DNA of 64,000 bases from positions 12,099 to 76,098 of the IMG/VR virus record IMGVR_UViG_2693429768_000001; one strand, given 5' to 3'. This DNA is from a virus (Duplodnaviria; Heunggongvirae; Uroviricota; Caudoviricetes). The notes under the pieces were generated by a model. It was not told the DNA's origin. It worked only from the letters and a program-made list of their open reading frames with translations, and did not search any database. The position numbers and the translations under genes are program-made. Shown here piece by piece: positions 1 to 50,923 of the stretch (position 1 is its first letter; each line of letters begins with the position of its first letter).

Positions 1-19
1 TGTTAGTGAGGCCGTAACT

Positions 20-241
20 ATGGTTAATGCCAATCCTTGCGCACGCCAAGAATTCATCTGGCGTTTCTATTCCTGTAAAAAACACCACTATCACTTCGTT
101 ATCGCAGCAACAGAAGACGAAGCACGCTCTCAATTGCCTGATGGCCCCTGCATTTTTACTGCCCGTTTTTCAACTAACTCGCGCAATTCACTTAGTTACT
201 GGAGCCTCCCCTTCTCTGCCGACGTTCAGGGGGGTTTATGA
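20..241 (+). CDS. icd: Icd-like small protein (73 aa); stop overlaps the antirepressor ATG (ATGA)
   Basis: ORF position and translational coupling match the P1 immI arrangement c4-icd-ant; the protein itself is not independently recognised. Confidence 0.45.
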   Translation: MVNANPCARQEFIWRFYSCKKHHYHFVIAATEDEARSQLPDGPCIFTARFSTNSRNSLSYWSLPFSADVQGGL

Positions 242-1272
242 AAACACCTCTCGTCACCCGTAATGAAATAGCCGAAGCGATCGCCTTGCATACAATCTGT
301 ATGCCGACACGGGAGATCCCCGGCGCAATTGCCAACTATTTCATGATAACCAGGCGTTTTTATACCCGAACAGATAAGGCTGTGATCAACAGGCTACTGA
401 TAGCCGAGATCAGGGATTATTTGATTGAACAAGGACGTCTACGTTACGCAACAGTGGCAGCAGAAATGAGAAAGGAGGCACATAGAATGACCGGTAATAA
501 TTTAAATGTTGAAAAACCAGCACCTGTTGCTTCAGCTACGCCAGCACCAGCCCTGAATGTCATCCCCAACACCGGAGACACAATCGACAGCCAAACATTG
601 TTGAAGATGGTCAATGAGGCACGGAAATTATGTAGCGAAAAACCAGTTCGCAACAATGATTTCATTGCCAGAGTTAAGGATGAGCTTGAAGGAGAAACCT
701 ACGAAATTTTCGTAGGTCAAAAAAACGGCGCAGAAATAGATATTATAACCATGACCTACAAACAAGCCCTGCGAGTTGCCGCGCGCGAGTCAAAAGCGGT
801 CCGCCGTTCGCTGATCGACAAACTGGAAGAATTACAGCAGGCAAACTCCCCTACCCCATCGATCCCCCAAACATTACCAGAAGCCCTACGCCTGGCTGCC
901 GAGTTGGCAGAACAGAAAATGCATCTGGAACAACAGCTGGTGGCCGCAGCACCTAAAGTCGATTTTGCCGACCGGGTATCAGTGGCTAATGGAATCCTGA
1001 TCGGTAACTTTGCAAAGGTCGTTGGACTTAAGCAAAACGCCCTTTTCTCATGGTTGCGCCAGAACGGCATTCTCATGGCTTTTGGTGCGCGCAAAAACGT
1101 ACCGCGCCAGCAGTACATTAACGCCGGGTATTTCACGGTGAAAGAAGTGGTGCTGGATGATGAAAATGGCTATCAGATACGGCTGACGCCACAATTAACG
1201 GGTAAAGGCCAGCAGTGGTTAACTCGCAAGCTACTTGATGCTGGTTTGTTAAAACCAGTAGCAATAGGTTAA
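238..1272 (+). CDS. ant1: Antirepressor Ant1 (Ant2 expected from an internal in-frame start)
   Basis: 344-aa ORF; its C-terminal ~125 aa (LPEALRLAAELAEQK...TGKGQQWL) is near-duplicated in the downstream KilA ORF; synteny icd-ant-kilA-repL. Confidence 0.8.
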   Translation: MKTPLVTRNEIAEAIALHTICMPTREIPGAIANYFMITRRFYTRTDKAVINRLLIAEIRDYLIEQGRLRYATVAAEMRKEAHRMTGNNLNVEKPAPVASATPAPALNVIPNTGDTIDSQTLLKMVNEARKLCSEKPVRNNDFIARVKDELEGETYEIFVGQKNGAEIDIITMTYKQALRVAARESKAVRRSLIDKLEELQQANSPTPSIPQTLPEALRLAAELAEQKMHLEQQLVAAAPKVDFADRVSVANGILIGNFAKVVGLKQNALFSWLRQNGILMAFGARKNVPRQQYINAGYFTVKEVVLDDENGYQIRLTPQLTGKGQQWLTRKLLDAGLLKPVAIG

Positions 1273-1350
1273 CAAAAGAAAAAAACCTGCCAGCAAACTG
1301 GCAGGTTTCTGAGCAGATCGTCCAACCCGATCTGGATCGAGTCAGAAAAA

Positions 1351-1367
1351 TTTGCTCTAATAAATTT
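1351..1367 (+). promoter_or_regulatory. C1 operator-like 17-mer (tttgctctaataaattt) upstream of kilA
   Basis: 16/17 match to recalled P1 C1 operator consensus ATTGCTCTAATAAATTT; sits about 70 bp upstream of kilA start. Confidence 0.6.
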
Positions 1368-1436
1368 CGTTTTCTAAGTGCAAAGAATCACCATTTCGAG
1401 CTGGTGATTGAAGGTTGATGCAAATTTGGAGAAAAA

Positions 1437-2237
1437 ATGCAACAAACATTCAATGCGGATATGAATATATCAAACCTTCATCAAAATGTCGATCCTTCAA
1501 CCACTCTGCCCGTTATTTGTGGTGTTGAAATTACGACCGACCGCGCTGGCCGTTACAACCTTAATGCTCTACACAGAGCGAGCGGACTCGGTGCCCATAA
1601 AGCGCCAGCTCAATGGCTAAGAACGCTGTCAGCCAAACAGCTCATCGAAGAGCTTGAAAAAGAAACTATGCAGAATTGCATAGTTTCGTTCGAAGGCCGT
1701 GGCGGCGGCACTTTTGCCCATGAATTGCTCGCAGTGGAGTACGCAGGCTGGATTTCTCCCGCGTTTCGGCTGAAGGTAAACCAGACATTTATCGACTATC
1801 GAGCCGGAAGATTACAACCTGCTATTCCGAAGAGCCTCCCAGAAGCTCTCCGTTTGGCTGCTGACCTGGCAGAGCAAAAGCAACGGCTGGAGCAAAAAAT
1901 GCTGATGGATGCACCTAAAGTCGAATTCGCCGAACGCGTTGCTACCGCCAGCGGGGTTCTAATCGGCAACTATGCCAAAGTGCTCGGCCTGGGCCAAAAC
2001 TATCTCTTCACCTGGTTGCGTGATAACGGAATTCTGATCGCAACCGGTGAACGCAGGAACGTCCCCAAACAAGAATACATATCCCGTGGGTATTTCACCC
2101 TTAAAGAAACCGTGATCGATACAAGCAATGGAAGCAGGATTTCTTTCACGACTCGTATAACCGGCAAAGGTCAGCAGTGGCTGATGAAGCGATTGCTTGA
2201 TGCTGGTGTGCTGGTACCTGTCGCGGCAACGCGCTAA
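1437..2237 (+). CDS. kilA: KilA (KilA-N domain plus antirepressor-type C-terminal domain), 266 aa
   Basis: Length, N-terminal KilA-N-like region, C-terminal domain paralogous to Ant, immediately upstream of repL. Confidence 0.85.
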   Translation: MQQTFNADMNISNLHQNVDPSTTLPVICGVEITTDRAGRYNLNALHRASGLGAHKAPAQWLRTLSAKQLIEELEKETMQNCIVSFEGRGGGTFAHELLAVEYAGWISPAFRLKVNQTFIDYRAGRLQPAIPKSLPEALRLAADLAEQKQRLEQKMLMDAPKVEFAERVATASGVLIGNYAKVLGLGQNYLFTWLRDNGILIATGERRNVPKQEYISRGYFTLKETVIDTSNGSRISFTTRITGKGQQWLMKRLLDAGVLVPVAATR

Positions 2238-2266
2238 CAGACGTAGTAAGAACCACCAGCATTGTA

Positions 2267-3112
2267 ATGCTGGCTAAAGTCACTTTCCTGAGCTGTATAA
2301 CGATGAGCGATTTTACTTTTTCTGGCTATGAATTGGCCTTCTTTGTAACACACTCCGGTCTATCCCGTAGCGCCGGGCATATCCTGTCGCAATGTGCAAA
2401 TCTCGCGGCAACAACCAGTGAATACTTCATTCACAAGCCCCACCGCCTGATCGCGGCAGAAACTGGTTATAGCCAATCAACCGTCGTTCGTGCATTCCGT
2501 GAAGCTGTAAACAAAGGAATTCTATCTGTAGAGATTGTTATCGGCGATCACCGTGAACGTCGCGCTAACCTGTACCGGTTTACACCATCCTTTTTGGCCT
2601 TCGCACAACAAGCCAAAAATGCGCTGATTGAAAGCAAATTAAAGATCTCTTCAGCGGCAACCAAGGTTAAAGCTGTTCTCGCTAAGACATTGGCTTTATT
2701 TAATTTTTTATCCACACCCCCATGTCAAAATGATACCCCCTCCCCCTGTCAGGATGACGTGGCAATAAAGAATAAGAAGTCACAAGTTAAAAAAACAAAA
2801 AGATCAGTTTCCGGCGGTGCCGGAACGACCAGACTCAAAAAATTGACTTCATGGATCGCTGAGGCAAAAGCAAAGGCTGACAATCTGCGGTTATCCAAAA
2901 AACGCGCTCAAAAACATGAGTTCAAGCAGAAAGTAGAGGCGGCAGCGCGGAAATATGCTTACCTGAAGGACAAGCGTTCTCCTGATATTGGCGGGATATC
3001 AAACTTCGATAATCTGCCGCATTGCATGACGGTAAACGAAGCTCTTAATGCGGTTTTAGCCAAAAATAAAGATAACGAAAAATGGGGTATACCGGCAGGA
3101 TTCAGGGGATGA
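2267..3112 (+). CDS. repL: RepL lytic replication initiator (oriL expected inside the gene)
   Basis: 281-aa ORF recognised as P1 RepL by sequence and position after kilA. Confidence 0.9.
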   Translation: MLAKVTFLSCITMSDFTFSGYELAFFVTHSGLSRSAGHILSQCANLAATTSEYFIHKPHRLIAAETGYSQSTVVRAFREAVNKGILSVEIVIGDHRERRANLYRFTPSFLAFAQQAKNALIESKLKISSAATKVKAVLAKTLALFNFLSTPPCQNDTPSPCQDDVAIKNKKSQVKKTKRSVSGGAGTTRLKKLTSWIAEAKAKADNLRLSKKRAQKHEFKQKVEAAARKYAYLKDKRSPDIGGISNFDNLPHCMTVNEALNAVLAKNKDNEKWGIPAGFRG

Positions 3113-3429
3113 TAGATTGCTCTAATCTGGAGTCACCTGGCGTTTTCAGTTTGAGGTCGGAGATGCAATCTGATTTTTTACAGTTAGCGATCGCTTTTGC
3201 AGGATATGTTTGTATTGGCTTCTGTGTATACATGATCAGCCGAAAAATGCTTGTCGATATCGACCGCAAAGAACGAGCAGAGGAGATCTTAGTATGGATT
3301 TTCTTTGGCGCGGTCTGGCCATTAGGGATCATGTTTGCTGCAACATTTCTTCGATGTGGATATTCACCCTTCCAGGTGATTTCTATAGAAAAAAAGCCAG
3401 ACATTGATACAATCGTTGCGGGTGCTTGA
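3082..3429 (+). CDS. Hypothetical small membrane protein downstream of repL; start uncertain
   Basis: ORF with two hydrophobic segments overlapping the repL end; followed by a 10-bp stem hairpin at 3432-3466. Confidence 0.3.
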   Translation: MGYTGRIQGMIDCSNLESPGVFSLRSEMQSDFLQLAIAFAGYVCIGFCVYMISRKMLVDIDRKERAEEILVWIFFGAVWPLGIMFAATFLRCGYSPFQVISIEKKPDIDTIVAGA

Positions 3430-3439
3430 GGCTATCTGC

Positions 3440-3535
3440 TTCAGGCATGACCCGAAAAGCAGATAGAAGAAAGCCCCAGATAACATTACGCGTCCTGCAA
3501 GACGCTTAACATTAATCTGAGGCCATATCTATGCT
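3440..3535 (-). ncRNA. Region where a Sok-like antisense RNA would be expected (not resolved)
   Basis: Inference only, from hok/sok locus architecture; no promoter or terminator mapped. Confidence 0.2.
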
Positions 3536-3737
3536 TAGCATACGTAGATTAGCCTCTTACCGACCAAAAGGTCAAGGAGAAGCAGGCTATGAAGCAGCAA
3601 AAAGCGATGTTAATCGCTCTGATCGTCATCTGTTTAACCGTCATTGTGACGGCACTGGTAACGAGGAAAGACCTCTGCGAGGTACGAATCCGAACCGGCC
3701 AGACGGAGGTCACTGTCTTCACAGCCTACGAATCTGA
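3531..3737 (+). CDS. Mok-like overlapping reading frame of the hok-like locus
   Basis: 68-codon ORF starting 58 nt upstream of the hok-like ATG and overlapping it in another frame, as for mok/hok. Confidence 0.4.
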   Translation: MLSIRRLASYRPKGQGEAGYEAAKSDVNRSDRHLFNRHCDGTGNEERPLRGTNPNRPDGGHCLHSLRI

Positions 3738-3744
3738 AAGGTAA
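3589..3744 (+). CDS. Hok/Gef-family type I toxin, 51 aa
   Basis: MKQQKAMLIALIVICLTVIVTALVTRKDLCEVRIRTGQTEVTVFTAYESER: single TM helix and conserved C-terminal block (TRK.LCE.R...EV..F.AYES) as in R1 Hok; SD AGGAGA upstream. Confidence 0.8.
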   Translation: MKQQKAMLIALIVICLTVIVTALVTRKDLCEVRIRTGQTEVTVFTAYESER

Positions 3745-4039
3745 GAGACCTGGCGGGGAGTGATCCCCGTCACTCTTCGTGTGTCTGGTAACCTCAATGC
3801 ACCCTTTTCTCCCCAATAGTGTAAAACACAATGAAGTAGAAGGAGTTATTTCACATCATGCAAAGATTCAGACCATATCTCCCAATAGCCTTCGCGACAT
3901 GATGACTTTCAGAAATATCTAGCTGTTAACAAAATTCCATACTTGCTTTGCTAATACCACCTAGATTATATATGGAAAAATACACCTAAAACTTAAACAA
4001 ATTATATCCACAACAAACATCCATCTATTAGGATTAAAA

Positions 4040-4092
4040 TTAATTTAATAATAAATAATACAACACCGGTTCATTTTCTAACAAACCGGTGG
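4040..4092 (-). terminator. Hairpin (accggtt/aaccggt) plus A/T-rich tract downstream of the MazG-like gene
   Basis: 7-bp inverted repeat with 12-nt loop directly after the stop codon, followed on the minus strand by a U-rich run. Confidence 0.4.
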
Positions 4093-4098
4093 GCACCA

Positions 4099-5091
4099 TT
4101 ATTGGAATAACTTACTGATTACATTAAAAACATTAAGGGCGTTACTTGCCACACTAGACATCTTGGCTGAATTTTTTTCGATTGAGTCAAGAACACTTTC
4201 GACTTCCGATAAAGTTCTTCTGCTATCTGCATCTTTTCCTGAGTCTATCGCATCTTTAATTGCAGATATAGCAGACTCTAAATTCTCCTTAAACTCACCT
4301 GTCGTCTCATCCTTCAAGAGAAGTTCTAACTCTTGTTTAAGTTTTTCCAATGATGCTCTTTTCTCATCAGTTTTACTAATCTTCCCTGAATAACTGACAC
4401 AAACACATTCTCTTTTATTGCAGACAGGACAACCATTTAGATAATAACTTTCAAACGCCTCGCCAAGATCATCATCTTTAAAAATAATCCCCCATAAAGA
4501 AAACAACCAAGCATATATATCAGCACACTCTTCATGAAGATTTTCTTTGTTGTAATTTTTATCTTCAATTGATTTAGCATAAGCCTCTTGCAACTCACCC
4601 AACTCTTCGAATAACCTGGATGAATGATAAAACCCACCAAAAGTAGACCAAATGGTTCTATTCGACGGATAGATGTCATTAATCATTCGTGGCGCATAAG
4701 GCGGAAATTGCATAGGTTTAATAGCGTTATATTTATTGAAAAGCTCATCTTTAATTCCTTTTGCGCTTCTTATTTTCTCTGGCTTTCTGTGTGTTTGAGA
4801 ACAGGAACAAGGCGCCCCTAAGCAATAAGGACAGCAACTAGGAAATTTTTTATAAAATGCTTCCTGTGGTTGTATTTCAAGTTTATCACAGATTGCAAAA
4901 AGCCAAGACAATGCTTCTATATAGGTATTTTTTAATAATTCTTTATCCTGATTACCATCACGAATAAACTCACGTGTTAAATAAGCTGTTTTCCTTGTCA
5001 GATAAGAGTACATATACTCAAATGATTTTTCTTCATTTTTTTTGCTGTAAATACCTACAATAATATTGCTCATATCATTGATACGTAACAT
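4099..5091 (-). CDS. MazG/HisE-like NTP pyrophosphohydrolase-type protein with two Cys-rich zinc-ribbon-like clusters and a C-terminal coiled-coil tail (about 330 aa from the SD-supported ATG)
   Basis: Motifs RLFEELGELQEAY and HEECADIYAWLFSL (EExxE...E..D pattern); Cys clusters CCPYCLGAPCSCS and CPVCNKRECVC; gene and flanks are visibly AT-rich; SD AAGAGGA before the ATG at 5091. Confidence 0.6.
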   Translation of the reverse strand: MLRINDMSNIIVGIYSKKNEEKSFEYMYSYLTRKTAYLTREFIRDGNQDKELLKNTYIEALSWLFAICDKLEIQPQEAFYKKFPSCCPYCLGAPCSCSQTHRKPEKIRSAKGIKDELFNKYNAIKPMQFPPYAPRMINDIYPSNRTIWSTFGGFYHSSRLFEELGELQEAYAKSIEDKNYNKENLHEECADIYAWLFSLWGIIFKDDDLGEAFESYYLNGCPVCNKRECVCVSYSGKISKTDEKRASLEKLKQELELLLKDETTGEFKENLESAISAIKDAIDSGKDADSRRTLSEVESVLDSIEKNSAKMSSVASNALNVFNVISKLFQ

Positions 5092-5388
5092 GACATTCCT
5101 CTTAAATAAGCCAATACTTCCTAGAACCATATATGCTTCGACAAAGATTAACGGACATCTTGCCTTCACAAACTTTGACGCTACATAAATTTAACCATGT
5201 GCATACTAAATATTTAAGGTAGAAAAGTATAGGAGTATTTATTAATAGGTAACTGTTAGTTTACACTCACTTCATACCAGAGTATTTACAAGATGTTATT
5301 TTACTCTATTCGCTAGGCGGTGGAATGCGGTTGTATCAAGGGGAGGTAAACCTCCCCCGAAGAAGATTAAAAGTACAAGGGATAACAC

Positions 5389-5898
5389 TTAATCCCACTC
5401 AATCCAGTTGTAGACGATACGAAGTGACGGGCGCACAGCGGCAGTCACATCTTCGGTACTAAAGTCGATTGCATCACTGTAGATTTTGCAGTCCAACATT
5501 TCAATTGTTGTAGCAGCTTTTGTCACAGCGTTAACCCCGGAAGATTTGGATTCAGGGGTAGCAGCCATCGTGATATCAACATAGTCCTTCGCCGCAATGC
5601 GATCTTTAATGAACTGAAGAATATCGCCTTCGATAGTCTCCACGCACTGGACCTGGATTTCCCCAGAGTTTCGAATTGGACCGTGCTGGTTGAACTTCAC
5701 ACCATTCGGACCATAGTCCTCCACATCCTCGCGGGTCATTTCAGGAATTTGCGACGTGCGAACCAGTACGCTGATATCTTCATGGCCTGCAAAAGTGAGC
5801 TGGAATTCAGAAGATACCAGTCGTTCGCCTTTGGCCGCGTTGGCAGTATAGCGGCCCTTAATAAATTTACGGTTTCCCTTAGTGTTATTGTGCCCCAT
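5389..5898 (-). CDS. Putative tail tube-like protein (169 aa)
   Basis: Size and weak resemblance to myovirus tube proteins (C-terminal ...NWIEWD); lies in the block with the sheath-like gene. Confidence 0.4.
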   Translation of the reverse strand: MGHNNTKGNRKFIKGRYTANAAKGERLVSSEFQLTFAGHEDISVLVRTSQIPEMTREDVEDYGPNGVKFNQHGPIRNSGEIQVQCVETIEGDILQFIKDRIAAKDYVDITMAATPESKSSGVNAVTKAATTIEMLDCKIYSDAIDFSTEDVTAAVRPSLRIVYNWIEWD

Positions 5899-5909
5899 AT
5901 AAAATCCTT

Positions 5910-6491
5910 TTACTGGAACGCCCGAACAATATCGGAGCTGTTATATATCGAAGAACCGGTCAACTGGAGGTTGACGGTGTTTTTCAGGAAATGCCCATTG
6001 CTGTCCCTGGGTGCATCGAGATCGAAACTTATGTCCTGGATAGCGACATCAATGATGTTGATCCGGCGACCAATGTTTAGCGTCACACGCTCCGGGATTC
6101 GACCGCCAATACTGGCATCTTTAAGTTCCGGGCTAATCATCGCTGACAATGCGGCGATAGCTCCTGAAACCTCCGTGAATGGGTCAAACAAAGCGATGAA
6201 AGTTACTGGCAGCGTGAAAGTCGGCGGTGTTCCCCCCTCCCAAACCATTAAGCTGTTCCAACGGGCCACCGACGTTGTTTCAGTACCAACCTGCGCAAAA
6301 CCACTGAAAGCACCAGCAACAGACCCCATGGACATACCGGTAAACGGCGCTTCCCAATTCTGGGCCATGTTCATTGCTGCCCCCTGGCTGATATATCCGG
6401 TAACCTGGTACTGAGAGTTCGTTAAAGTAACTTTCAGAAATGGCGATACACCATCAGCCTGGCTGTAAACCCCATAAGGTATAGGTGCCAT
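5910..6491 (-). CDS. Hypothetical virion/tail protein (193 aa)
   Basis: Tightly packed in the same minus-strand operon as sheath and tube candidates. Confidence 0.35.
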   Translation of the reverse strand: MAPIPYGVYSQADGVSPFLKVTLTNSQYQVTGYISQGAAMNMAQNWEAPFTGMSMGSVAGAFSGFAQVGTETTSVARWNSLMVWEGGTPPTFTLPVTFIALFDPFTEVSGAIAALSAMISPELKDASIGGRIPERVTLNIGRRINIIDVAIQDISFDLDAPRDSNGHFLKNTVNLQLTGSSIYNSSDIVRAFQ

Positions 6492-6526
6492 TCAAGTTAA
6501 AGGCCGGAGTTCTCCGGCCTCCTCCT

Positions 6527-7342
6527 TTAGCCAAGGCGCTTACGGCGCAGTTTCATTGACTTTTTGCGGGCAAGTTTTGCCGCGCCGGTCTGGGCTTTTC
6601 GACGCGCTTTTTTCAGCGCCGATTTTTGAGCCGCAGTCAGACGTTTTTTCCGCAGGCGTTTACGGATGAGTTTGATCTCACCGTTACGAACAACCTTCTT
6701 AAATGCTTCAGTCAGCATTTCATCAGAAGTGCCAGCAACAACAAACGCCGCTTCCAGTTCGTCGCGGTCGTCGCTATCTAAACCAGCGATAGAGGCACCA
6801 ACATCAGCAGCAGCGTCGTCGTCTTCATCGTCAGCCAGTGCTTCGATCATGTCATCATCTACACCGCATGCTGCGAGGAAGTCAGCAACATTTGCCCATG
6901 CTTCGTTATAGGCATCGTCCTGTTCTTCTGTAACTTCGGAGTCGTCGTCATCAGAGATACCAGCGATAGCCTGAACGAAACCATCAAGGGAGTCGAAAGT
7001 CAGATCACCGCTATCAGCCCAGGCGAAAACGGCGTCGGCCGCATCACTCAACGCATTCTGCATCGCACTTCGATTTGCAGCTTCCAGAATCATCTGGTGC
7101 GCCTGTTCAACGGTCCATTCTTTACCGTCTTTCTCTTCCAGGATTTGCTCAGGAGCCGGATCAGATGGAACGTTATCGTTAGTCTGTGCCGCCGGTTCCG
7201 GATTATTATTAATAACCGGATCTGTTGGCGGTTCGGCGCTTGCTCGGGCAGACTCCATCAGCTGCACAGGATCAGAGTTCAAAGCGAAACGGGACAGTCC
7301 ATTCCCCAAAAATGCCCCGGATTGAAAAAAGTTTTTGCTCAT
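6527..7342 (-). CDS. Hypothetical highly acidic protein with lysine/arginine-rich C-terminus (271 aa)
   Basis: Long ORF with extreme acidic composition and basic tail; operon position between structural genes. Confidence 0.4.
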   Translation of the reverse strand: MSKNFFQSGAFLGNGLSRFALNSDPVQLMESARASAEPPTDPVINNNPEPAAQTNDNVPSDPAPEQILEEKDGKEWTVEQAHQMILEAANRSAMQNALSDAADAVFAWADSGDLTFDSLDGFVQAIAGISDDDDSEVTEEQDDAYNEAWANVADFLAACGVDDDMIEALADDEDDDAAADVGASIAGLDSDDRDELEAAFVVAGTSDEMLTEAFKKVVRNGEIKLIRKRLRKKRLTAAQKSALKKARRKAQTGAAKLARKKSMKLRRKRLG

Positions 7343-7351
7343 TGTATTCCC

Positions 7352-8941
7352 TTACTTAATAAGCAGCGGTACGCCCTGGATACGACGGGCTACGCCAGTC
7401 GGGCAGCAGGCCCAGACTGCTTCCCATTTATCGAATTCCGCCTGCGTAACTTTCAGCACATACGGTTCTGTACCGTCAGCATCAGGATCACGAGGAGCCA
7501 CCAGAGCGCCGGAGGCGACAAAGCGATCTAAAAGTTTGGTCATCCCTTTAGTCAGACCAGCCGCAGTAATACCGTCCGGGCTATGCTTCATCTGTCGGGC
7601 TAACTGGACAAAGAAACGGCTGATTGCATTCATCAGGGATGGGACGTGCTGGAAGTGCAGATAGTTATCCTGCGTGCAGCAAGTTAAAGCATCGTCGATG
7701 ATCATCTGGCCAGAGGTGCCAACAGATACTTTATTGAGACGGCCCTTGACCATTGCTTCTTCGTCCGGGGTATCTTCCGGATACAGCGGTTGAATTGACG
7801 CACGAGCAATGACGGCACGTTCTTCACCAGCCGGTGAGTAATGCCAACCGCCGACATCAGAGTTTTTCTTGACGCCACGAGCTTTCGCCGCATACGCCGA
7901 GCCAGACAGACCGAAGACCACACGGGATTGGGTCCATTTGTCTTTGCAGGAGAACGGGAAGTGATAGACAGCACAGCTTACATAATCGGTACCAAGTAAA
8001 CCGGTATCTTCAACAGCAGAGATCGCTTCCGTGTACGTCAATGTCGGTTTGACATCAAAGAAGCCATCAATCAGGCGATCTGCACAGATTTTACCTAATG
8101 CGGTGATAGCCGCATTGTCATAGCAGCCCAAGCCAAGAACAGCGGTGTACATGTACGGCGCATTGTTCAGCACTTTCACCGCACGCAGGTACGCAGCGGT
8201 TGAGATTTTCGACTGATCACCGTTGGTACCACCAGTGAACGCCAACGATTTTTTGTTTGTTACTTTCGCTGTAGAAATCAGCTCTTCATTAACAACCGCG
8301 CGCAGATATTTAGAACGGGCTTCCAGAGCCGTAGGCAGATAACACAAGCGGCCCATGTCATCTTTCGCTTCTTCCGCCAAAGACACAGTGTGTGTCTCCA
8401 GGGTCGTTACCACACCGAGCGAAGTCGTCTGGGTCAGTTTTAAGAGGAAGCGTTCATTACCCGCGCTGTCCGCTGTTGCCGTTTCGATGGTTAACTCACG
8501 GGTAGGTGAAATACACGGATCACCATCATCAACGTAGATAGCAAAGGCTTCGCCGCTATCAAGTTCAATTTCAGAACCATATGGCAACGCACTGTAAGCC
8601 GGTTCGCCTGATTCATCGAACATAATAATCGGGAACTTCGCATCATCCGGAACAGCACGGACAACATAACCAGACGTTTGCTGAATAGCTTCGTACACAT
8701 GGCGAATTGGTTCGAACTGTGAGCCGGAGGACGGCTTCAGCGGTTCGCCGAGAACATCTTCGTAATTGGACTCAGTAACTGCAAGAACAGTAAACGGCTT
8801 GCCACGCGCAAATACGCCAATACCAGCCCACAAGCTGCTATTTAATGCAACACCGGTAGATAACGTCGCATCGGCATTGATCGGGCTAACAGCGACGCCG
8901 GATGCATTACCTAATGACTGTTGAATTGAATATTGAGACAT
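7352..8941 (-). CDS. Putative contractile tail sheath protein (529 aa)
   Basis: Size and position upstream of tube-like genes; corresponds by synteny to P1 gene 22. Confidence 0.5.
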   Translation of the reverse strand: MSQYSIQQSLGNASGVAVSPINADATLSTGVALNSSLWAGIGVFARGKPFTVLAVTESNYEDVLGEPLKPSSGSQFEPIRHVYEAIQQTSGYVVRAVPDDAKFPIIMFDESGEPAYSALPYGSEIELDSGEAFAIYVDDGDPCISPTRELTIETATADSAGNERFLLKLTQTTSLGVVTTLETHTVSLAEEAKDDMGRLCYLPTALEARSKYLRAVVNEELISTAKVTNKKSLAFTGGTNGDQSKISTAAYLRAVKVLNNAPYMYTAVLGLGCYDNAAITALGKICADRLIDGFFDVKPTLTYTEAISAVEDTGLLGTDYVSCAVYHFPFSCKDKWTQSRVVFGLSGSAYAAKARGVKKNSDVGGWHYSPAGEERAVIARASIQPLYPEDTPDEEAMVKGRLNKVSVGTSGQMIIDDALTCCTQDNYLHFQHVPSLMNAISRFFVQLARQMKHSPDGITAAGLTKGMTKLLDRFVASGALVAPRDPDADGTEPYVLKVTQAEFDKWEAVWACCPTGVARRIQGVPLLIK

Positions 8942-9001
8942 AACTTTCCCTGTTATGCGCCCCGCACGGGGGCGCTATGTTAAACGGAGAACTTCCCCTG
9001 A

Positions 9002-10729
9002 TTACTCAGAGTCACCGGCATCAATCGTGTCGCCGCTTATAAAGTTAAGCCCGCCTTTTTTGGCCATTGTCAGCGTTACACGAGTGAAGTAATCAGCGCC
9101 GTTGCGTGGGTGCATATCGTTGATAGCCGAACCCCACAGCGTGGTACGGTTGACCAGCGCCGGAGTGGTCGGATGCTGGAACGGGATGGCCGGGACAGCA
9201 TCACCAGTCACGAAGCCTGCTTTACCCGGATTTTCATCACGGACGTAGCACAGCACATCCATCGAGCTGAACTGAATGTTCTCTGTCGTTAAGTTCTTAC
9301 AAATACCAGCAGGTACTTCGTACACTTTCACGTTACCGAACAGGGTACCGATGTAGTGAACATACGGAGTCTGGATATAGTCTTCGGCTGGCTGGAAGAA
9401 ATCCTTCGGCAACTGTTTGAAGAAAGATGCTGCATCAGCACCAGCAAACATCCCCATCGCACCAGAAGATTTAACGCGCTCAATAATGTCGCGATATACA
9501 GTCTGGAATTTGCCACGAATGATGGTTGCCCATACATCAAAGGACTGGTTAACCGGCAGAGCGATGTCAAAGGTGTCGGTCGCAAGAGTACGCCAGATCA
9601 TGATGCGGAGACGCAACATATCCTGTTCATGGGACAGGTATTCTTTCAGGGTGCGGAACTGTAGGGAACCCAGGTCCAGACCAAATTCACGCTGTGCTTC
9701 ATACGCTGCCTGTACCGTGTGCTCAGCCGCGATAACGAACTGGCTTGGGAACAGGGTGTATTTCTTCATTTCGTGGTTGATCAGCGGGATCAGCTCAGGA
9801 GCGGCTTCAATATTGATTTCCGTCTCAATTGCGATCTCAGTGCCTTTATCCGGCGCTTTGGAGAACGACAGGGCAATCTGACCAATGTTGTAGTTCAGAG
9901 AGCAGGTAACAGTGATTTGCTCACCAGCAGCATTAGTAAACGAGTGAAGTAGGCTGCCGGAACCGTTATCAACAACAGACTTAATACGGTTAACGTAGAT
10001 GTTAGTGCGACCTTTTCGGATTGGTACATTCTGGCCTTCGAAGTCTTCCATCTTGAAGGTTGCGGTTTTGCTGGTGCCATCGGAGCTTGCCACCAGCACA
10101 TAGCGGCGGCGTAACTGGCTGTACACACCGACGGATTGCATGTCCAGAACATCACCAGCAGCATAAGAACCAAAAGAGGAACCTGCCACGTTAAAGACTT
10201 CATAGATGTCGGACTGGTCACGCGTAACCGGAATGAAGGTACACGCATCAGCGGTAGCTGCCCCCAACTGAACAGGCAGGATCATCGCGAGGAATAAAGG
10301 CAGACGCATAACACCGTCAGAAACGCTCATCATCTCTGCTGCGACGGATTCCAGCATCGCTTTATTAGTGGCATCCATGCTATTGCGGGTGGACTCAATC
10401 AGGCAGTTTTCCAGCGTCTGGTGGCAGGAGGCCAGAATTTCCGGACGCGGCATAGATTTATGTGCTGCGGCGTAGTCAGCCAGTGCACTTGCCCACGCTG
10501 TAGCGATTTGAGCGGTGGCATTATCAGAGATACCCGCAAAAACCGGGTCTTTACGTGCAGCTTCAAGGATAGATGCGGCACGCGCGGCATCATCTTTAAT
10601 GAATTGGTTATCAGTACCGAACTGCGCAGTGCTTGCCCAGCCAAGCACAGCTTTAGAGCGTTTTGCGATATCTGCAATACGATTCTGGTATTCGCGTAAG
10701 TTACTCAATTTACTCTTCCTTAAACACAA
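9002..10729 (-). CDS. Large virion structural protein, possibly major head protein (P1 gene 23 position); start uncertain (non-ATG)
   Basis: 575-codon ORF adjacent to parS/parB as gene 23 is in P1. Confidence 0.35.
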   Translation of the reverse strand: MCLRKSKLSNLREYQNRIADIAKRSKAVLGWASTAQFGTDNQFIKDDAARAASILEAARKDPVFAGISDNATAQIATAWASALADYAAAHKSMPRPEILASCHQTLENCLIESTRNSMDATNKAMLESVAAEMMSVSDGVMRLPLFLAMILPVQLGAATADACTFIPVTRDQSDIYEVFNVAGSSFGSYAAGDVLDMQSVGVYSQLRRRYVLVASSDGTSKTATFKMEDFEGQNVPIRKGRTNIYVNRIKSVVDNGSGSLLHSFTNAAGEQITVTCSLNYNIGQIALSFSKAPDKGTEIAIETEINIEAAPELIPLINHEMKKYTLFPSQFVIAAEHTVQAAYEAQREFGLDLGSLQFRTLKEYLSHEQDMLRLRIMIWRTLATDTFDIALPVNQSFDVWATIIRGKFQTVYRDIIERVKSSGAMGMFAGADAASFFKQLPKDFFQPAEDYIQTPYVHYIGTLFGNVKVYEVPAGICKNLTTENIQFSSMDVLCYVRDENPGKAGFVTGDAVPAIPFQHPTTPALVNRTTLWGSAINDMHPRNGADYFTRVTLTMAKKGGLNFISGDTIDAGDSE

Positions 10730-10759
10730 GGCACTTGTGTGAATCCCTTTTCGGAAGAG

Positions 10760-10960
10760 ATTTTATTGAAAGTCACTTGTTGACTTTCTCGCTAAAAGTA
10801 ATTTTTTAAATTTTTTGTGCGGGGGAGGGGGGCAAGTAAAACAGGCGTGAAACCGTGGGAATTTCAGTCTGAAATTTTTCATGAATATCTATATATATCA
10901 TATATTTATACATGAAATAGACGCGGGACATTTTAGACAGGGGAGGGGGCTAAAGCCGCC
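10760..10960. promoter_or_regulatory. parS-like partition site region downstream of parB
   Basis: AT-rich region with atttcag/atttcat heptamer-like boxes and inverted repeats; sequence differs from recalled P1 parS. Confidence 0.4.
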
Positions 10961-10974
10961 TCCCACCAGCGGGA

Positions 10975-11940
10975 TTATTCCCCAGCAGACATTTTCCCAA
11001 TGATTTTTTTTATTGCTTCGTCAATTTCAGTTTGCACTTCAGACGGGAGTCTGGAGAACTCGTAGGCGACAACCCGTTTTTTCGGATCGGACTTCTTTCG
11101 GGCATATTGGCGACGGTCAGAGAAGTCTCGCAGCTTCTCAACCACCACAGATTTAACCGGCGCGGGCTTCAGGCTTTTGCTTTCCGCTTTGAAGATAGCC
11201 AGTATCTTCGCTTTATCCTCTTTCGCGCCCTCAGTCTCTGCAATTCGTTCGCGCACCGTATCAACCAGCTCTTCAATCGGCACGCTTTTAGCGTTAGCAT
11301 CCTCGGCGATCTGGAGCAGTAACTGGTAATCTGGAAGGGCGAGATCGCTGGCTACGGGGAAGACAGCAATCATCTCATCCGGCACCGCGGCAGCCTGGAA
11401 AGCTCGCGTCACTTTAGCCTTTGAAATGTTCTCAGCGCGGGCGATCTCTTCTTTGGTCATGCTCTTACCATACATAACCTCGAAGCGTTTACCCAGTTCG
11501 CGCAGGGTGTGTTCGCGGGCTGTCTGGATATCAATGGCCAGCTGGCGTGCATCCGCCAGGCTGATCTCATCTTTCGTCACCAGAATCTCAAATTTCGTTT
11601 CATTGAAGATACACGCAGCGCGGCGACGTGATCCGTCCAATACCTCAATGCGCTCCCCAACCATACGACCGATAGCCGGGAAGAACTGTTGCAATTTAAT
11701 GGTGCGGGAAATATCGCTTACCGACTCAGGTGTGAGCAGAGACTGATCGCGGCCGTTAACTGCCGGGTCAACGAACGTGCGCGACTCAATCTCACCACTC
11801 AGCACAACGGTAAGCAAAAATTTAGCCTGGCGGCCAGATTTTAGGGTAAAGGTTTTGGTGCCTTCACTGCCTTCAAGCATGCGAGCAAACTCGGAGCTAT
11901 TCTTGCCCAGCACTCGTCCACGGGAAACTATTTTTTTCAT
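10975..11940 (-). CDS. parB: ParB partition protein, P1 family but diverged (321 aa)
   Basis: Conserved blocks shared with P1 ParB (GRDQ..LTP, LDGSRRRA, AKVTRA, YEFSRL) but overall clearly diverged. Confidence 0.85.
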   Translation of the reverse strand: MKKIVSRGRVLGKNSSEFARMLEGSEGTKTFTLKSGRQAKFLLTVVLSGEIESRTFVDPAVNGRDQSLLTPESVSDISRTIKLQQFFPAIGRMVGERIEVLDGSRRRAACIFNETKFEILVTKDEISLADARQLAIDIQTAREHTLRELGKRFEVMYGKSMTKEEIARAENISKAKVTRAFQAAAVPDEMIAVFPVASDLALPDYQLLLQIAEDANAKSVPIEELVDTVRERIAETEGAKEDKAKILAIFKAESKSLKPAPVKSVVVEKLRDFSDRRQYARKKSDPKKRVVAYEFSRLPSEVQTEIDEAIKKIIGKMSAGE

Positions 11941-13148
11941 GCCGCCTCACCCCTAACAAACTCAATTCGATCAAACACAGCCTTAGTGAAACGCTCGGCC
12001 TCGGTTCGTGCCTTCTTCAGCGCCTCTGCACTGCCTGGATACGATTGCGGGTTGGCACTGATTACGGTGTCGAAAGACTCGCCGCATCGCTCAAATCCAT
12101 CCAGACGAGGCAGAGAAGAGTCCAGAATGTTGCTGGCGTAAACCTCACGCGCAAGGCTGTGTGATGTCTCGTGATCGCGCTTGCCGGTCATCTTCGACAT
12201 AAAACCAATGCTGGCGCTTAAACGCGGTTCTACGCCTTCCTCCTCCAGTTGCTCCAGCATTTCTGGCAGACGGGTGAGATATTTCAGTGTTGAGTGGAAG
12301 TCAACCTGGGCTGGTGGGGTAGGGGTAAGCAGCAAATCGCTGGCCGCCAGACCGTTGAGCAGGAACGGATCCAGGTGTGGACCGGTATCAATAAAGATAA
12401 AGTCATAATCATCCGCAACACGATCAATGATATTGCGTCGAAGGATTTCGTACTGATTTTGTCCGGGAAGATGCTCTTCAACCAGCTCTTTCCATTGGCT
12501 GGCAACAAAGCCATCGTCGATAGAGGCTGGAATCACGTCTACGCCAGGAACGATGGTCGGACGAATCACCTCTTTGCGTAGCGTCTCCGCGTCCAGGTCG
12601 TTCAGCATCGCCTGCGCGGCGGTTTCCAGGATGGAACCAATACTGTGAGTATGGTCGAGGAACATTGTGCTGGATGCCTGAGGGTCAAGGTCAATTACCA
12701 GAATGCGCAGATCGTGACGCAGTAAATCCTGATGCACACGCAGAGCGTGCGCCAACGTGACTGTGGAAACCGTTTTGGATACGCCACCCTTCAGGTTTAC
12801 GACAAAAATAACGTAAGGCGATTTGTGAATGTCGCGATATTTTGGGATCTTACGGTGGGCATAGATATCAATGACGTTCTGGATGGTCAGCGCGTACTGT
12901 TCAACGTTACCGACCTGTTTCTTGTTGAACTGGTACCCATCATCTTCCATCTCTTTGATGGCCTGCTCCACAATGCGGCGGCTCAGCTTCGGCAACTTTG
13001 CCACAGCGTTACGAGTGAACGTCTGATAATACTCGGTCTGATTGAACTCTTTGCGCTGATCTTCAATATCCTGACTCATGGCCTTAAGTAATGCGCTTGC
13101 ACGAAGAGCTATGGTGCCGACACCGCCGTAATCGCGTTTCATCATCAT
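11937..13148 (-). CDS. parA: ParA partition ATPase (403 aa)
   Basis: Deviant Walker A KGGVSKT; overlaps parB start; P1 synteny. Confidence 0.9.
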   Translation of the reverse strand: MMMKRDYGGVGTIALRASALLKAMSQDIEDQRKEFNQTEYYQTFTRNAVAKLPKLSRRIVEQAIKEMEDDGYQFNKKQVGNVEQYALTIQNVIDIYAHRKIPKYRDIHKSPYVIFVVNLKGGVSKTVSTVTLAHALRVHQDLLRHDLRILVIDLDPQASSTMFLDHTHSIGSILETAAQAMLNDLDAETLRKEVIRPTIVPGVDVIPASIDDGFVASQWKELVEEHLPGQNQYEILRRNIIDRVADDYDFIFIDTGPHLDPFLLNGLAASDLLLTPTPPAQVDFHSTLKYLTRLPEMLEQLEEEGVEPRLSASIGFMSKMTGKRDHETSHSLAREVYASNILDSSLPRLDGFERCGESFDTVISANPQSYPGSAEALKKARTEAERFTKAVFDRIEFVRGEAA

Positions 13149-45762: not shown

Positions 45763-45984
45763 ATGCAATCCATTAACTTCCGTACCGCGCGTGGCAACCT
45801 TTCTGAAGTGCTCAACAATGTTGAAGCCGGGGAAGAGGTTGAAATCACCCGCAGAGGCCGTGAGCCAGCAGTAATTGTCAGCAAGGCTACTTTCGAAGCC
45901 TACAAAAAAGCGGCGCTGGATGCTGAATTTGCATCCCTGTTTGACACCCTGGACTCCACCAACAAGGAACTGGTTAACCGATAA
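45763..45984 (+). CDS. phd: Phd antitoxin (73 aa)
   Basis: Sequence recognised ([39 protein letters not shown]...); GTGTACAC-type palindromes upstream. Confidence 0.9.
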
Positions 45985-46364
45985 TGAGGCATATATCACC
46001 GGAAGAACTTATTGCGCTTCATGATGCGAATATAAGCCGCTACGGCGGCCTGCCGGGAATGTCTGATCCGGGTAGGGCAGAGGCCATTATCGGGAGAGTT
46101 CAGGCCAGAGTTGCCTACGAAGAGATCACCGACCTTTTCGAAGTCTCCGCCACCTACCTGGTGGCTACAGCGAGAGGGCATATATTCAATGATGCCAATA
46201 AGCGTACCGCGCTAAACAGTGCGCTGCTATTTCTACGCCGTAACGGGGTGCAGGTATTTGATTCACCTGAACTGGCAGACCTTACCGTAGGCGCTGCGAC
46301 TGGCGAGATATCTGTATCTTCTGTCGCCGACACGTTACGTAGATTGTATGGTTCTGCGGAGTAG
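45984..46364 (+). CDS. doc: Doc toxin (Fic-fold kinase), 126 aa
   Basis: Sequence recognised; Fic motif [11 protein letters not shown]; ATGA overlap with phd stop. Confidence 0.95.
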
Positions 46365-49439: not shown

Positions 49440-50923
49440 TGGCCAGAAGTTGCGTAACGGACCCACGTTGGCGCGAGCTGGTGGCGCTATATCGTTATGA
49501 CTGGATTGCGGCCGCTGATGTGTTGTTTGGGAAGACACCAACCTGGCAGCAGGATGAGATCATTGAGTCCACGCAGCAGGACGGCAGTTGGACAAGTGTG
49601 ACCTCCGGCCATGGTACTGGTAAATCGGATATGACGAGTATCATTGCAATACTCTTCATCATGTTTTTCCCCGGCGCTCGCGTCATTCTGGTCGCTAACA
49701 AAAGACAGCAAGTCCTTGATGGTATTTTCAAATACATAAAGAGCAATTGGGCTACTGCTGTTAGCAGATTCCCGTGGTTGTCGAAGTATTTCATTCTTAC
49801 AGAAACGTCTTTTTTTGAGGTGACTGGCAAGGGTGTTTGGACAATATTGATAAAGTCCTGTCGCCCCGGAAATGAGGAGGCGTTGGCTGGTGAACACGCC
49901 GATCATCTCTTGTATATCATCGACGAAGCGTCGGGTGTGAGTGATAAAGCATTCAGTGTGATAACAGGTGCGCTGACCGGTAAGGATAACCGTATTCTGC
50001 TTCTTTCCCAGCCTACGCGACCTTCAGGCTATTTCTACGATTCACACCACAGACTAGCTATTCGCCCGGGAAATCCTGATGGATTGTTTACTGCGATAAT
50101 ACTGAATAGTGAAGAATCTCCGCTTGTAGATGCAAAATTTATACGAGCAAAACTTGCGGAGTATGGCGGTCGTGATAACCCCATGTACATGATCAAAGTA
50201 CGTGGTGAATTTCCCAAATCTCAAGATGGCTTTCTTCTTGGTCGTGATGAGGTTGAGCGGGCGACGCGGCGAAAGGTCAAGATTGCCAAAGGATGGGGCT
50301 GGGTTGCATGTGTTGACGTTGCTGGTGGCACAGGACGAGATAAGTCCGTTATTAATATCATGATGGTGTCCGGCCAGCGAAATAAACGCCGTGTAATCAA
50401 CTATCGTATGCTGGAATACACAGACGTTACAGAAACGCAGTTAGCCGCCAAGATTTTCGCAGAATGTAACCCAGAACGGTTCCCGAACATAACCATAGCT
50501 ATTGATGGCGATGGCTTGGGGAAATCGACGGCTGATCTAATGTACGAACGCTATGGCATTACCGTCCAGCGTATCCGCTGGGGTAAAAAGATGCACAGCC
50601 GTGAAGATAAAAGCCTTTATTTCGATATGCGCGCTTTCGCGAATATTCAGGCGGCAGAAGCTGTAAAATCAGGGCGTATGAGGCTTGATAAGGGGGCTGC
50701 GACTATAGAGGAAGCATCAAAGATACCGGTAGGGATAAATTCCGCAGGTCAATGGAAGGTGATGTCAAAGGAAGATATGAAGAAAAAACTCAACCTGCAC
50801 TCACCGGACCATTGGGATACATATTGTTTCGCTATGTTGGCGAACTATGTTCCCCAAGATGAAGTGCTTAGCGTCGAAGACGAAGCGCAGGTTGATGAAG
50901 CTCTGGCATGGCTTAATGAATAA
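49439..50923 (+). CDS. pacB: PacB terminase large subunit (494 aa)
   Basis: Walker A-like GHGTGKS; length and synteny. Confidence 0.9.

Follow-up and report, generated by a model that had tools for sequence, protein, structure and literature searches.

A P1-like phage-plasmid with an apparently intact hok/mok/sok type I toxin-antitoxin cassette at its repL-bplB variable region

Does a P1-like phage-plasmid carry a second toxin-antitoxin module next to its lytic replicon, and what would such a module do there? The question arises from a stretch of 64,000 nucleotides (nt) of a Caudoviricetes virus (IMG/VR record IMGVR_UViG_2693429768_000001, positions 12,099 to 76,098; this whole stretch is hereafter the window), in which an initial annotation made from the sequence alone placed a hok/mok-like type I toxin locus immediately downstream of repL and proposed that the element holds two unrelated addiction modules. 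Judged from its sequence, the region at approximately 3386-3812 is a hok/mok/sok type I toxin-antitoxin cassette that belongs to the hokW/hokD subgroup and is apparently intact; a P1-like phage-plasmid carries it as cargo at its repL-bplB variable region. Post-segregational killing that stabilizes the low-copy plasmid prophage is its most likely role, a reading by analogy which we hold with moderate confidence. The cassette itself is an ordinary locus, of a kind already known and already annotated.

The hok toxin gene

The plus-strand open reading frame (ORF) at 3589-3744, preceded by a Shine-Dalgarno (SD) sequence GGAG at 3576-3579, encodes a peptide of 51 amino acids (aa), MKQQKAMLIALIVICLTVIVTALVTRKDLCEVRIRTGQTEVTVFTAYESER. 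Its reading as a Hok/Gef-family toxin is borne out by the ORF list and by two profile matches: Pfam PF01848 HOK_GEF (E=2.4e-22, 78.7 bits against a cut-off of 22, all 42 profile positions covered) and the PHROG family phrog_251 "MokW-like host killing" (E=4.9e-32). The peptide is also 92% identical to HokW of phage 933W and prophage Sp5. Together, these matches and the HokW identity place it among the Hok/Gef-type peptides, which are about 50 aa long with an N-terminal transmembrane helix and a conserved periplasmic Cys. The NCBIfam Hok-family models scored below their curated cut-offs on the peptide, PADLOC models matched neither Hok nor the neighboring genes, and neither collection added information on the genes beside hok. 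The name that PGAP gives to this Hok is HokD.

The hok mRNA and its structural elements

A consensus scan of the plus strand places a putative hok promoter at 3386-3413, with a -35 element TAGAAA (3386-3391), a 16-nt spacer containing TG, and a -10 element TACAAT (3408-3413) that ends 6 nt upstream of the tac element. In diverse homologues a -10 hexamer is found equally far 5' of tac (TAGAAT in 933W, TATAAT in Escherichia loci). The unit would thus begin slightly further 5' than the boundary at 3430 set by the initial annotation, with the putative promoter at 3386-3413 and the transcript start near 3420. The predicted full-length hok mRNA spans 3420-3812 (393 nt, plus strand); its 5' end is taken from the promoter and position 1 of the Rfam model described below, and its 3' end is approximate. 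Similarity to hokW and other hok loci extends from about 3408/3417 to 3804. The predicted transcript folds with a minimum free energy (MFE) of -153.3 kcal/mol (z=-6.6 against dinucleotide shuffles).

The initial annotation had proposed a covariance-model search and a check for tac and fbi elements. Rfam RF01794 ("sok") matched 3420-3594 across the full model (positions 1-157) with 113.9 bits, well above the gathering threshold of 59 (E=1e-26), and tac and fbi were both located. Given this score and the z-score of the predicted mRNA fold, the hok, mok, and hairpin features of the window are not chance. The RF01794 match is to the hok-sense strand and ends with model positions aligned to the hok AUG, so that the family models the hok leader, which is complementary to Sok, and provides no proof of an antisense RNA or of its orientation. 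Strand calls based on this model, although it is named "sok antitoxin", would mislead. A minus-strand match to RF01794 at 3330-3477 (20.4 bits, E=0.07) was sub-threshold and was taken as noise, as was a match to the small nucleolar RNA ceN48.

One hallmark of the hok family is long-range pairing between the two ends of the mRNA. In the MFE structure the tac element GGGTGCTTGAGG (3420-3431, plus strand) pairs with 3792-3804, and this fbi element, CCTCAATGCACCC, is its 3' partner with one bulged base. Among 35 loci the two elements covary at three positions (GGGTGC/GCACCC versus GGGCGC/GCGCCC; GAGG/CCTC, GAGA/TCTC, and GAAG/CTTC), and the column pair 4/406 is U-A in 17 sequences and C-G in 10, so that both the predicted fold and compensatory changes point to the end-to-end helix. 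Directly after tac lies the 5' stem-loop of the mRNA (3432-3466, plus strand), a perfect 10-bp inverted repeat of ctatctgctt (3432-3441) and aagcagatag (3457-3466). The hairpin had been read correctly from the sequence as perfect; its description as preceding the locus does not stand, as it belongs to the hok mRNA itself. It corresponds to consensus helix 2, in which 99.6% of cells are paired and two pairs show compensatory change. A ucb-like box CTCTTAC (3554-3560) is predicted to pair with a dcb-like box GTAAGAG (3741-3747) that overlaps the hok stop codon; both boxes are on the plus strand. This helix 4 is present in the MFE and consensus folds and is 100% paired, and 6 of its 7 pairs are invariant, for which reason covariation is uninformative on it. 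A further stem-loop in the 3' untranslated region (GGCGGGGA/TCCCCGTC, 3751-3772, plus strand) appears in the MFE fold and as consensus helix 14, with two compensatory pairs.

The consensus derives from an alignment of 29 sequences, among them hokW/mokW/sokW of 933W and 27 other loci found in Escherichia, Shigella, Kluyvera, Citrobacter, Pantoea, and Photorhabdus. RNAalifold returned 80 pairs, with standard pairs in 98% of cells and compensatory change in 17 pairs. When the 3' partners were slid by 1-3 columns, only 1-5 compensatory pairs were counted, and 0 of 500 column shuffles reached the observed value; the structure was derived from the same alignment that was used for counting, which favors it over the slid controls. 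Removal of the 3' 38 nt alters the predicted fold of the 5' domain, and this modeled refolding is consistent with activation by 3' processing. A clean tac-ucb pairing in the 3'-truncated mRNA was not reproduced by folding, and we make no claim for the structure of the active form.

The mok reading frame

The mok unit occupies 3519-3737 on the plus strand, with an SD sequence GAGG at 3519-3522 and a 68-codon frame at 3531-3737. The ORF list confirms this frame as the initial annotation described it, overlapping hok in another frame; it begins 58 nt 5' of the hok start and stops 7 nt before the hok stop. The start codon of mok is retained in 27 of the 29 homologues, with the frame reading through the hok start, and the mok frame relative to hok is not constant among them. 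In hokW and most of its relatives the mok ATG is in-frame with hok and yields an extended Hok of 68-70 aa (alignment columns 118-177). The window and other P1-like copies have one extra T (AAAGGTCAAGG, window 3565-3575), which moves mok out of the hok frame. This alignment points to conservation of translation through the hok start rather than of a Mok protein, which fits the translational coupling of mok and hok described for plasmid R1. The arrangement expected of a mok frame is thus found here: an overlapping frame translated through the hok start, with its ribosome-binding site (RBS) inside the antisense target.

The Sok antisense RNA

A Sok-like antisense RNA gene of about 71 nt is placed on the minus strand at 3539->3469 through position-for-position alignment with the annotated 71-nt sokW of 933W. 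Its span covers both the mok SD (3519-3522) and the mok ATG (3531-3533). The predicted RNA consists of a 5' single-stranded tail (3539-3525), a long hairpin, and a UUUCUUC tail (-29.9 kcal/mol, z=-5.4), and the pairs of the hairpin covary among homologues (helix 3, four compensatory pairs).

The putative Sok promoter on the minus strand (3575-3546) comprises a -35 element TTGACC (3575-3570), an 18-nt spacer, and a -10 element TAATCT (3551-3546), with a predicted start at 3539. A simple promoter scan did not list it, because its -10 matches the consensus at just three of six bases; its placement comes from homology, through alignment with the experimentally tested sokW promoter. The -10 aligns with the TAACCT hexamer of sokW, which was mutated with primers YO-421/422 to silence sokW (Takada et al. 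2021, PMC8621323). At the level of sequence, everything that marks a sok gene can accordingly be recognized: a size of about 65-70 nt, a promoter of its own, a single-stranded 5' tail, a hairpin, and a U-tract. Lack of an antisense promoter or of complementarity, either of which the initial annotation considered fatal to its proposal, was not encountered: a putative promoter and a complementary 71-nt region could both be placed.

Conservation within the locus is lowest where the Sok 5' tail is encoded (pairwise identity 0.56-0.63 versus 0.81-0.87 for the hok coding sequence, CDS), and 6 of 16 bases of the recognition tail differ from sokW. Such divergence would be expected if paralogues avoid cross-talk or diverge in recognition specificity.

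Proposed model of post-segregational killing

Post-segregational killing would be the most natural role for a cassette on a low-copy plasmid prophage. From the sequence and structure elements observed above and their conservation, we infer a mechanism modeled on hok/sok of plasmid R1, with transcription, differential RNA stability, toxicity, and the stabilization phenotype as its inferred components. A weak constitutive promoter at 3386-3413 would yield a stable hok mRNA of about 390 nt, which tac-fbi and ucb-dcb pairing would hold in a closed form that is neither translated nor bound by the antisense RNA. Slow 3' trimming would then strip fbi, allowing the 5' domain to refold and expose the mok RBS (3519-3533). 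The short-lived Sok of about 71 nt, transcribed from its own promoter, would pair with the exposed RBS region, stopping the translation of mok and hence the coupled translation of hok, and the duplex would be marked for RNase III. Upon loss of the plasmid prophage, Sok synthesis would end, the stored hok mRNA would be translated, and the 51-aa Hok would enter the inner membrane and kill the cell. In this way the cassette would stabilize the plasmid prophage beside par and phd-doc.

Genomic setting

The window is a P1-like phage-plasmid. Positions 1-12000 are 97-98% identical to P1, P7, and many "P1" records, barring one block, and P1 and P7 each offer a single matching place for this 12-kb query. 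In blastn of P1 against the window, homology reaches 14 nt beyond the repL stop (3112), to position 3126, and is found again from 5356, a short way past the end of bplB. The intervening cargo segment (3127-5355, 2,229 bp), delimited by the blastn breakpoints and the P1 annotation, replaces the P1 genes rlfA-rlfB-pmgF (1,835 bp). It contains a small ORF (3163-3429), the hok unit, and a MazG-like gene (4099-5169, minus strand), a gene order likewise annotated in NZ_CP074369.1. The rlfA-rlfB-pmgF site (variable region 5, repL-bplB) is one of eight variable regions published for P1-like phage-plasmids (PMC9603915), and at least four alternative contents occupy it.

The position of the locus directly 3' of repL was given correctly by the initial annotation, as was its identification as hok-type, the sequence-level hallmarks of the family that could be examined being present. 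The same holds for the absence of hok from reference P1: searches of NC_005856/AF234172 with Hok (tblastn) and with the locus (blastn), covering all but positions 50001-50499 inside kilA, returned noise only, and rlfA-rlfB-pmgF occupies the site. The phd-doc module was also found as the initial annotation had stated (45763-46364, plus strand, 99.5% identity over 602 nt to P1 phd-doc). Two unrelated toxin-antitoxin modules are thus present as proposed; the word "addiction" for hok goes further and is an interpretation, given that its closest characterized relative was shown to aid phage release, not maintenance.

That relative suggests another role, in which the cassette helps lysis: on induction Sok would be lost, and early Hok would damage the inner membrane, bringing earlier lysis and more phage. 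In hokW-sokW of prophage Sp5, induction causes sokW to vanish and HokW to appear before the endolysin, and deletion of the locus halves the phage released (PMC8621323). Hok-family loci are moreover common in lambdoid prophages, which need no plasmid maintenance. The setting in the window offers a possible route, as hok has the same direction as kilA-repL and lies 308 nt 3' of the repL stop, with one weak terminator-like hairpin (5-bp stem, 3364-3379) in between. The 17-bp C1 operator Orlf (window 3116-3132) is interrupted by the left breakpoint: ATTGCTCTAAT (11 bases) is kept and the other 6 bases are replaced. Read-through of the derepressed, C1-controlled kilA-repL unit could run head-on into the Sok promoter and silence Sok; both the read-through and the transcriptional interference are, however, speculation. 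P1 encodes holins and an endolysin of its own (lydA, lydD, lyz), P1 and P7 lyse without hok, and the effect in Sp5 is a modest, twofold one reported in one study. We consider a lytic helper role unlikely on balance yet a serious rival, and it is compatible with post-segregational killing rather than exclusive of it. A combined form, in which the cassette is wired to the lytic switch and serves as an addiction module in lysogeny and as an early, holin-independent accelerator of lysis on induction, appears rather doubtful.

The MazG-like neighbor bears on a third role. This 356-aa ORF is absent from P1 and is annotated as "MazG-like family protein" in sister plasmids; it has a weak PHROG match to a nucleoside-triphosphate pyrophosphohydrolase family (E=4e-6) and nothing matched it in Pfam or PADLOC. 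Cargo hotspots often carry defense or counter-defense genes, and the location of the cassette in such a hotspot beside this gene could agree with abortive infection: a virulent phage shuts off host transcription, Sok decays, Hok kills the cell, and sister lysogens are protected. For R1, hok/sok on a high-copy plasmid reduced T4 plating by 42% and plaque size by about 85% (summarized in PMC8621323). This effect was weak and depended on many plasmid copies per cell, whereas P1-like prophages are kept at low copy, and the PADLOC search for Hok and its neighbors was blank. Defense by this route therefore seems quite improbable.

The remaining features of the segment lie on either side of the cassette. 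The small ORF between repL and hok (3163-3429, plus strand, with a longer frame from 3082) encodes two hydrophobic segments or transmembrane helices and overlaps the hok promoter; its residues 1-63 match phrog_3772, a family of unknown function. In one plasmid with 99% identity a frameshift alters the C-terminus of this ORF, and its 3' part is thus probably unconstrained. Beside the MazG-like gene lie a terminator-like hairpin (4091-4064) and an AT-rich spacer (3830-4098). The junction of hok and the MazG-like gene is common to only about 10 plasmids among the matches listed.

Distribution and prior annotation

The novelty that the initial annotation implied does not survive comparison with sequenced plasmids and genomes. 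About 480 PLSDB plasmids match 3430-3830 at 95% identity or above; they are mostly non-mobilizable and about 90-100 kb in size, and their copies are annotated as "hokD: type I toxin-antitoxin system toxin HokD". From the 674 plasmid matches to repL plus hok we took 60 at even spacing, 46 of which bear repL: the order repL-orf-hok is present in 27 of these (59%), 5 have only a truncated leader, and 14 have neither. The repL-hok arrangement also occurs in 256 of 5,426 complete E. coli genomes, plasmids that share it are typed IncY, and hundreds of plasmids conserve it with 98-99% identity. Six GenBank records of P1-like phages contain the locus, one of which ("Punavirus P1") annotates MokW. Presence and annotation in all P1 genomes, which had been named as a reason to set the proposal aside, is therefore largely the case, though reference P1 is without the locus. 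No study of this cassette in P1-like elements was found in the literature searched.

Loss of the toxin gene is also seen. In approximately 5 of the 60 sampled P1-like plasmids the hok CDS is missing, and the hok promoter, tac, the 5' hairpin, and all of the sok region including its -10 are retained. These sok-only plasmids diverge from about window 3554 onward and have a different minus-strand gene; one example (locus L054, NZ_CP023961.1) corresponds at 4136-4436 to window 3400-3557. An orphan sok of this kind could be an anti-addiction element against the Hok of a competing P1-like plasmid.

Some plasmids of 110-166 kb share only window 3293-3767, which raised the idea of an independent mobile hok module on non-P1 plasmids. 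We rejected it on the example inspected: in pYLMB10a (locus L053, NZ_CP073989.1, 134 kb, IncHI1B), P1 bplB and tail genes lie downstream and IS1 upstream of the locus, which marks an IS1-truncated P1 hybrid rather than an independent module. The rearrangement associated with IS1 removed repL from this plasmid.

Variation at the site also bears on whether the cassette does anything for its carrier. It may be a passenger, selfish, neutral, or silenced and without benefit, which was acquired by recombination at the hotspot or is simply hard to lose. Several observations agree with this: the site is a known variable one with multiple contents (PMC9603915), variants without the hok CDS exist, a chromosomal hokD copy (locus L013) wholly lacks the leader, and resident sok homologues are near-universal in E. 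coli. An inactive copy should decay, however, as the leaderless chromosomal copy did, and the P1-like copies have intact regulatory elements, uninterrupted ORFs, complementary tac and fbi, and 98-99% identity over hundreds of plasmids. On this evidence we regard a mere passenger as a distant prospect.

Assessment of the proposed role

Post-segregational killing remains our preferred reading of the cassette, for which the plasmid-prophage context and co-residence with phd-doc are circumstantial support. Several points weigh against it. The sole close relative studied in its native phage, hokW-sokW, was reported to aid phage release on induction and not maintenance (PMC8621323). P1-like plasmids already have active partition and phd-doc, and reference P1 and P7 do without hok. 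Sister plasmids that lost the hok CDS and kept the sok region imply that the toxin is dispensable. At the level of the cassette itself, the putative Sok -10 agrees only half-way with the consensus, and the pair counts share their alignment with the structure they assess. Finally, hok-like matches at 80-90% identity (query 2900-3810), most of them chromosomal, are present in 4,731 of the 5,426 complete E. coli genomes; the median is 2 places per genome and the maximum 9. This argues against strong addiction, as do the sister plasmids without the hok CDS and the lack of hok in P1 and P7, and the Sok RNAs of such resident loci might neutralize the window Hok after plasmid loss.

Beyond correct annotation the locus has little significance of its own. 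It does indicate that reference P1 is unrepresentative of its group, as most sequenced P1-like plasmids carry a type I cassette besides phd-doc. This bears on how stably such resistance-gene carriers persist and on efforts to cure or displace P1-like plasmids.

Comparison with known systems

The closest known system is hokW-mokW-sokW of the Stx2 phage 933W and the Sakai prophage Sp5 (AF125520), with 87% DNA identity over 3430-3804. The two loci share tac, the 5' hairpin, the Sok region with its 71-nt antisense span, the ucb/dcb-like boxes, and fbi, and both are phage-borne. They differ in that the mok ATG of hokW is in-frame and gives a 70-aa extended Hok, whereas mok in the window is out of frame, and in that the host of hokW is an integrated lambdoid prophage whereas the window element is a plasmid prophage. 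For the Sp5 locus, the toxicity of HokW, its neutralization by sokW expressed from its own promoter, and the 71-nt complementary region have been demonstrated, and HokW shares just 44% identity with R1 Hok (PMC8621323).

The hok/mok/sok (parB) locus of R1 resembles the cassette in its Hok peptide, its out-of-frame overlapping mok, an antisense Sok over the mok RBS, tac-fbi pairing, and a plasmid context. The sequences are distant, and megablast does not link the two loci. This R1 system is the paradigm of type I post-segregational killing, established by the Gerdes laboratory.

Chromosomal peptides of the hokD (relF) type that were recovered differ from the window Hok at about 4 positions. The copy L013, whose peptide we take to be the HokD sequence of E. 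coli K-12, has no tac or leader upstream, in contrast to the complete regulatory apparatus of the window copy. The phd-doc module of the same element is unrelated, pairing a protease-degraded protein antitoxin with a Fic-fold kinase toxin where the hok cassette pairs an antisense RNA with a membrane peptide; the proposed outcome is nevertheless the same, namely that cells which have lost the plasmid prophage are killed or arrested.

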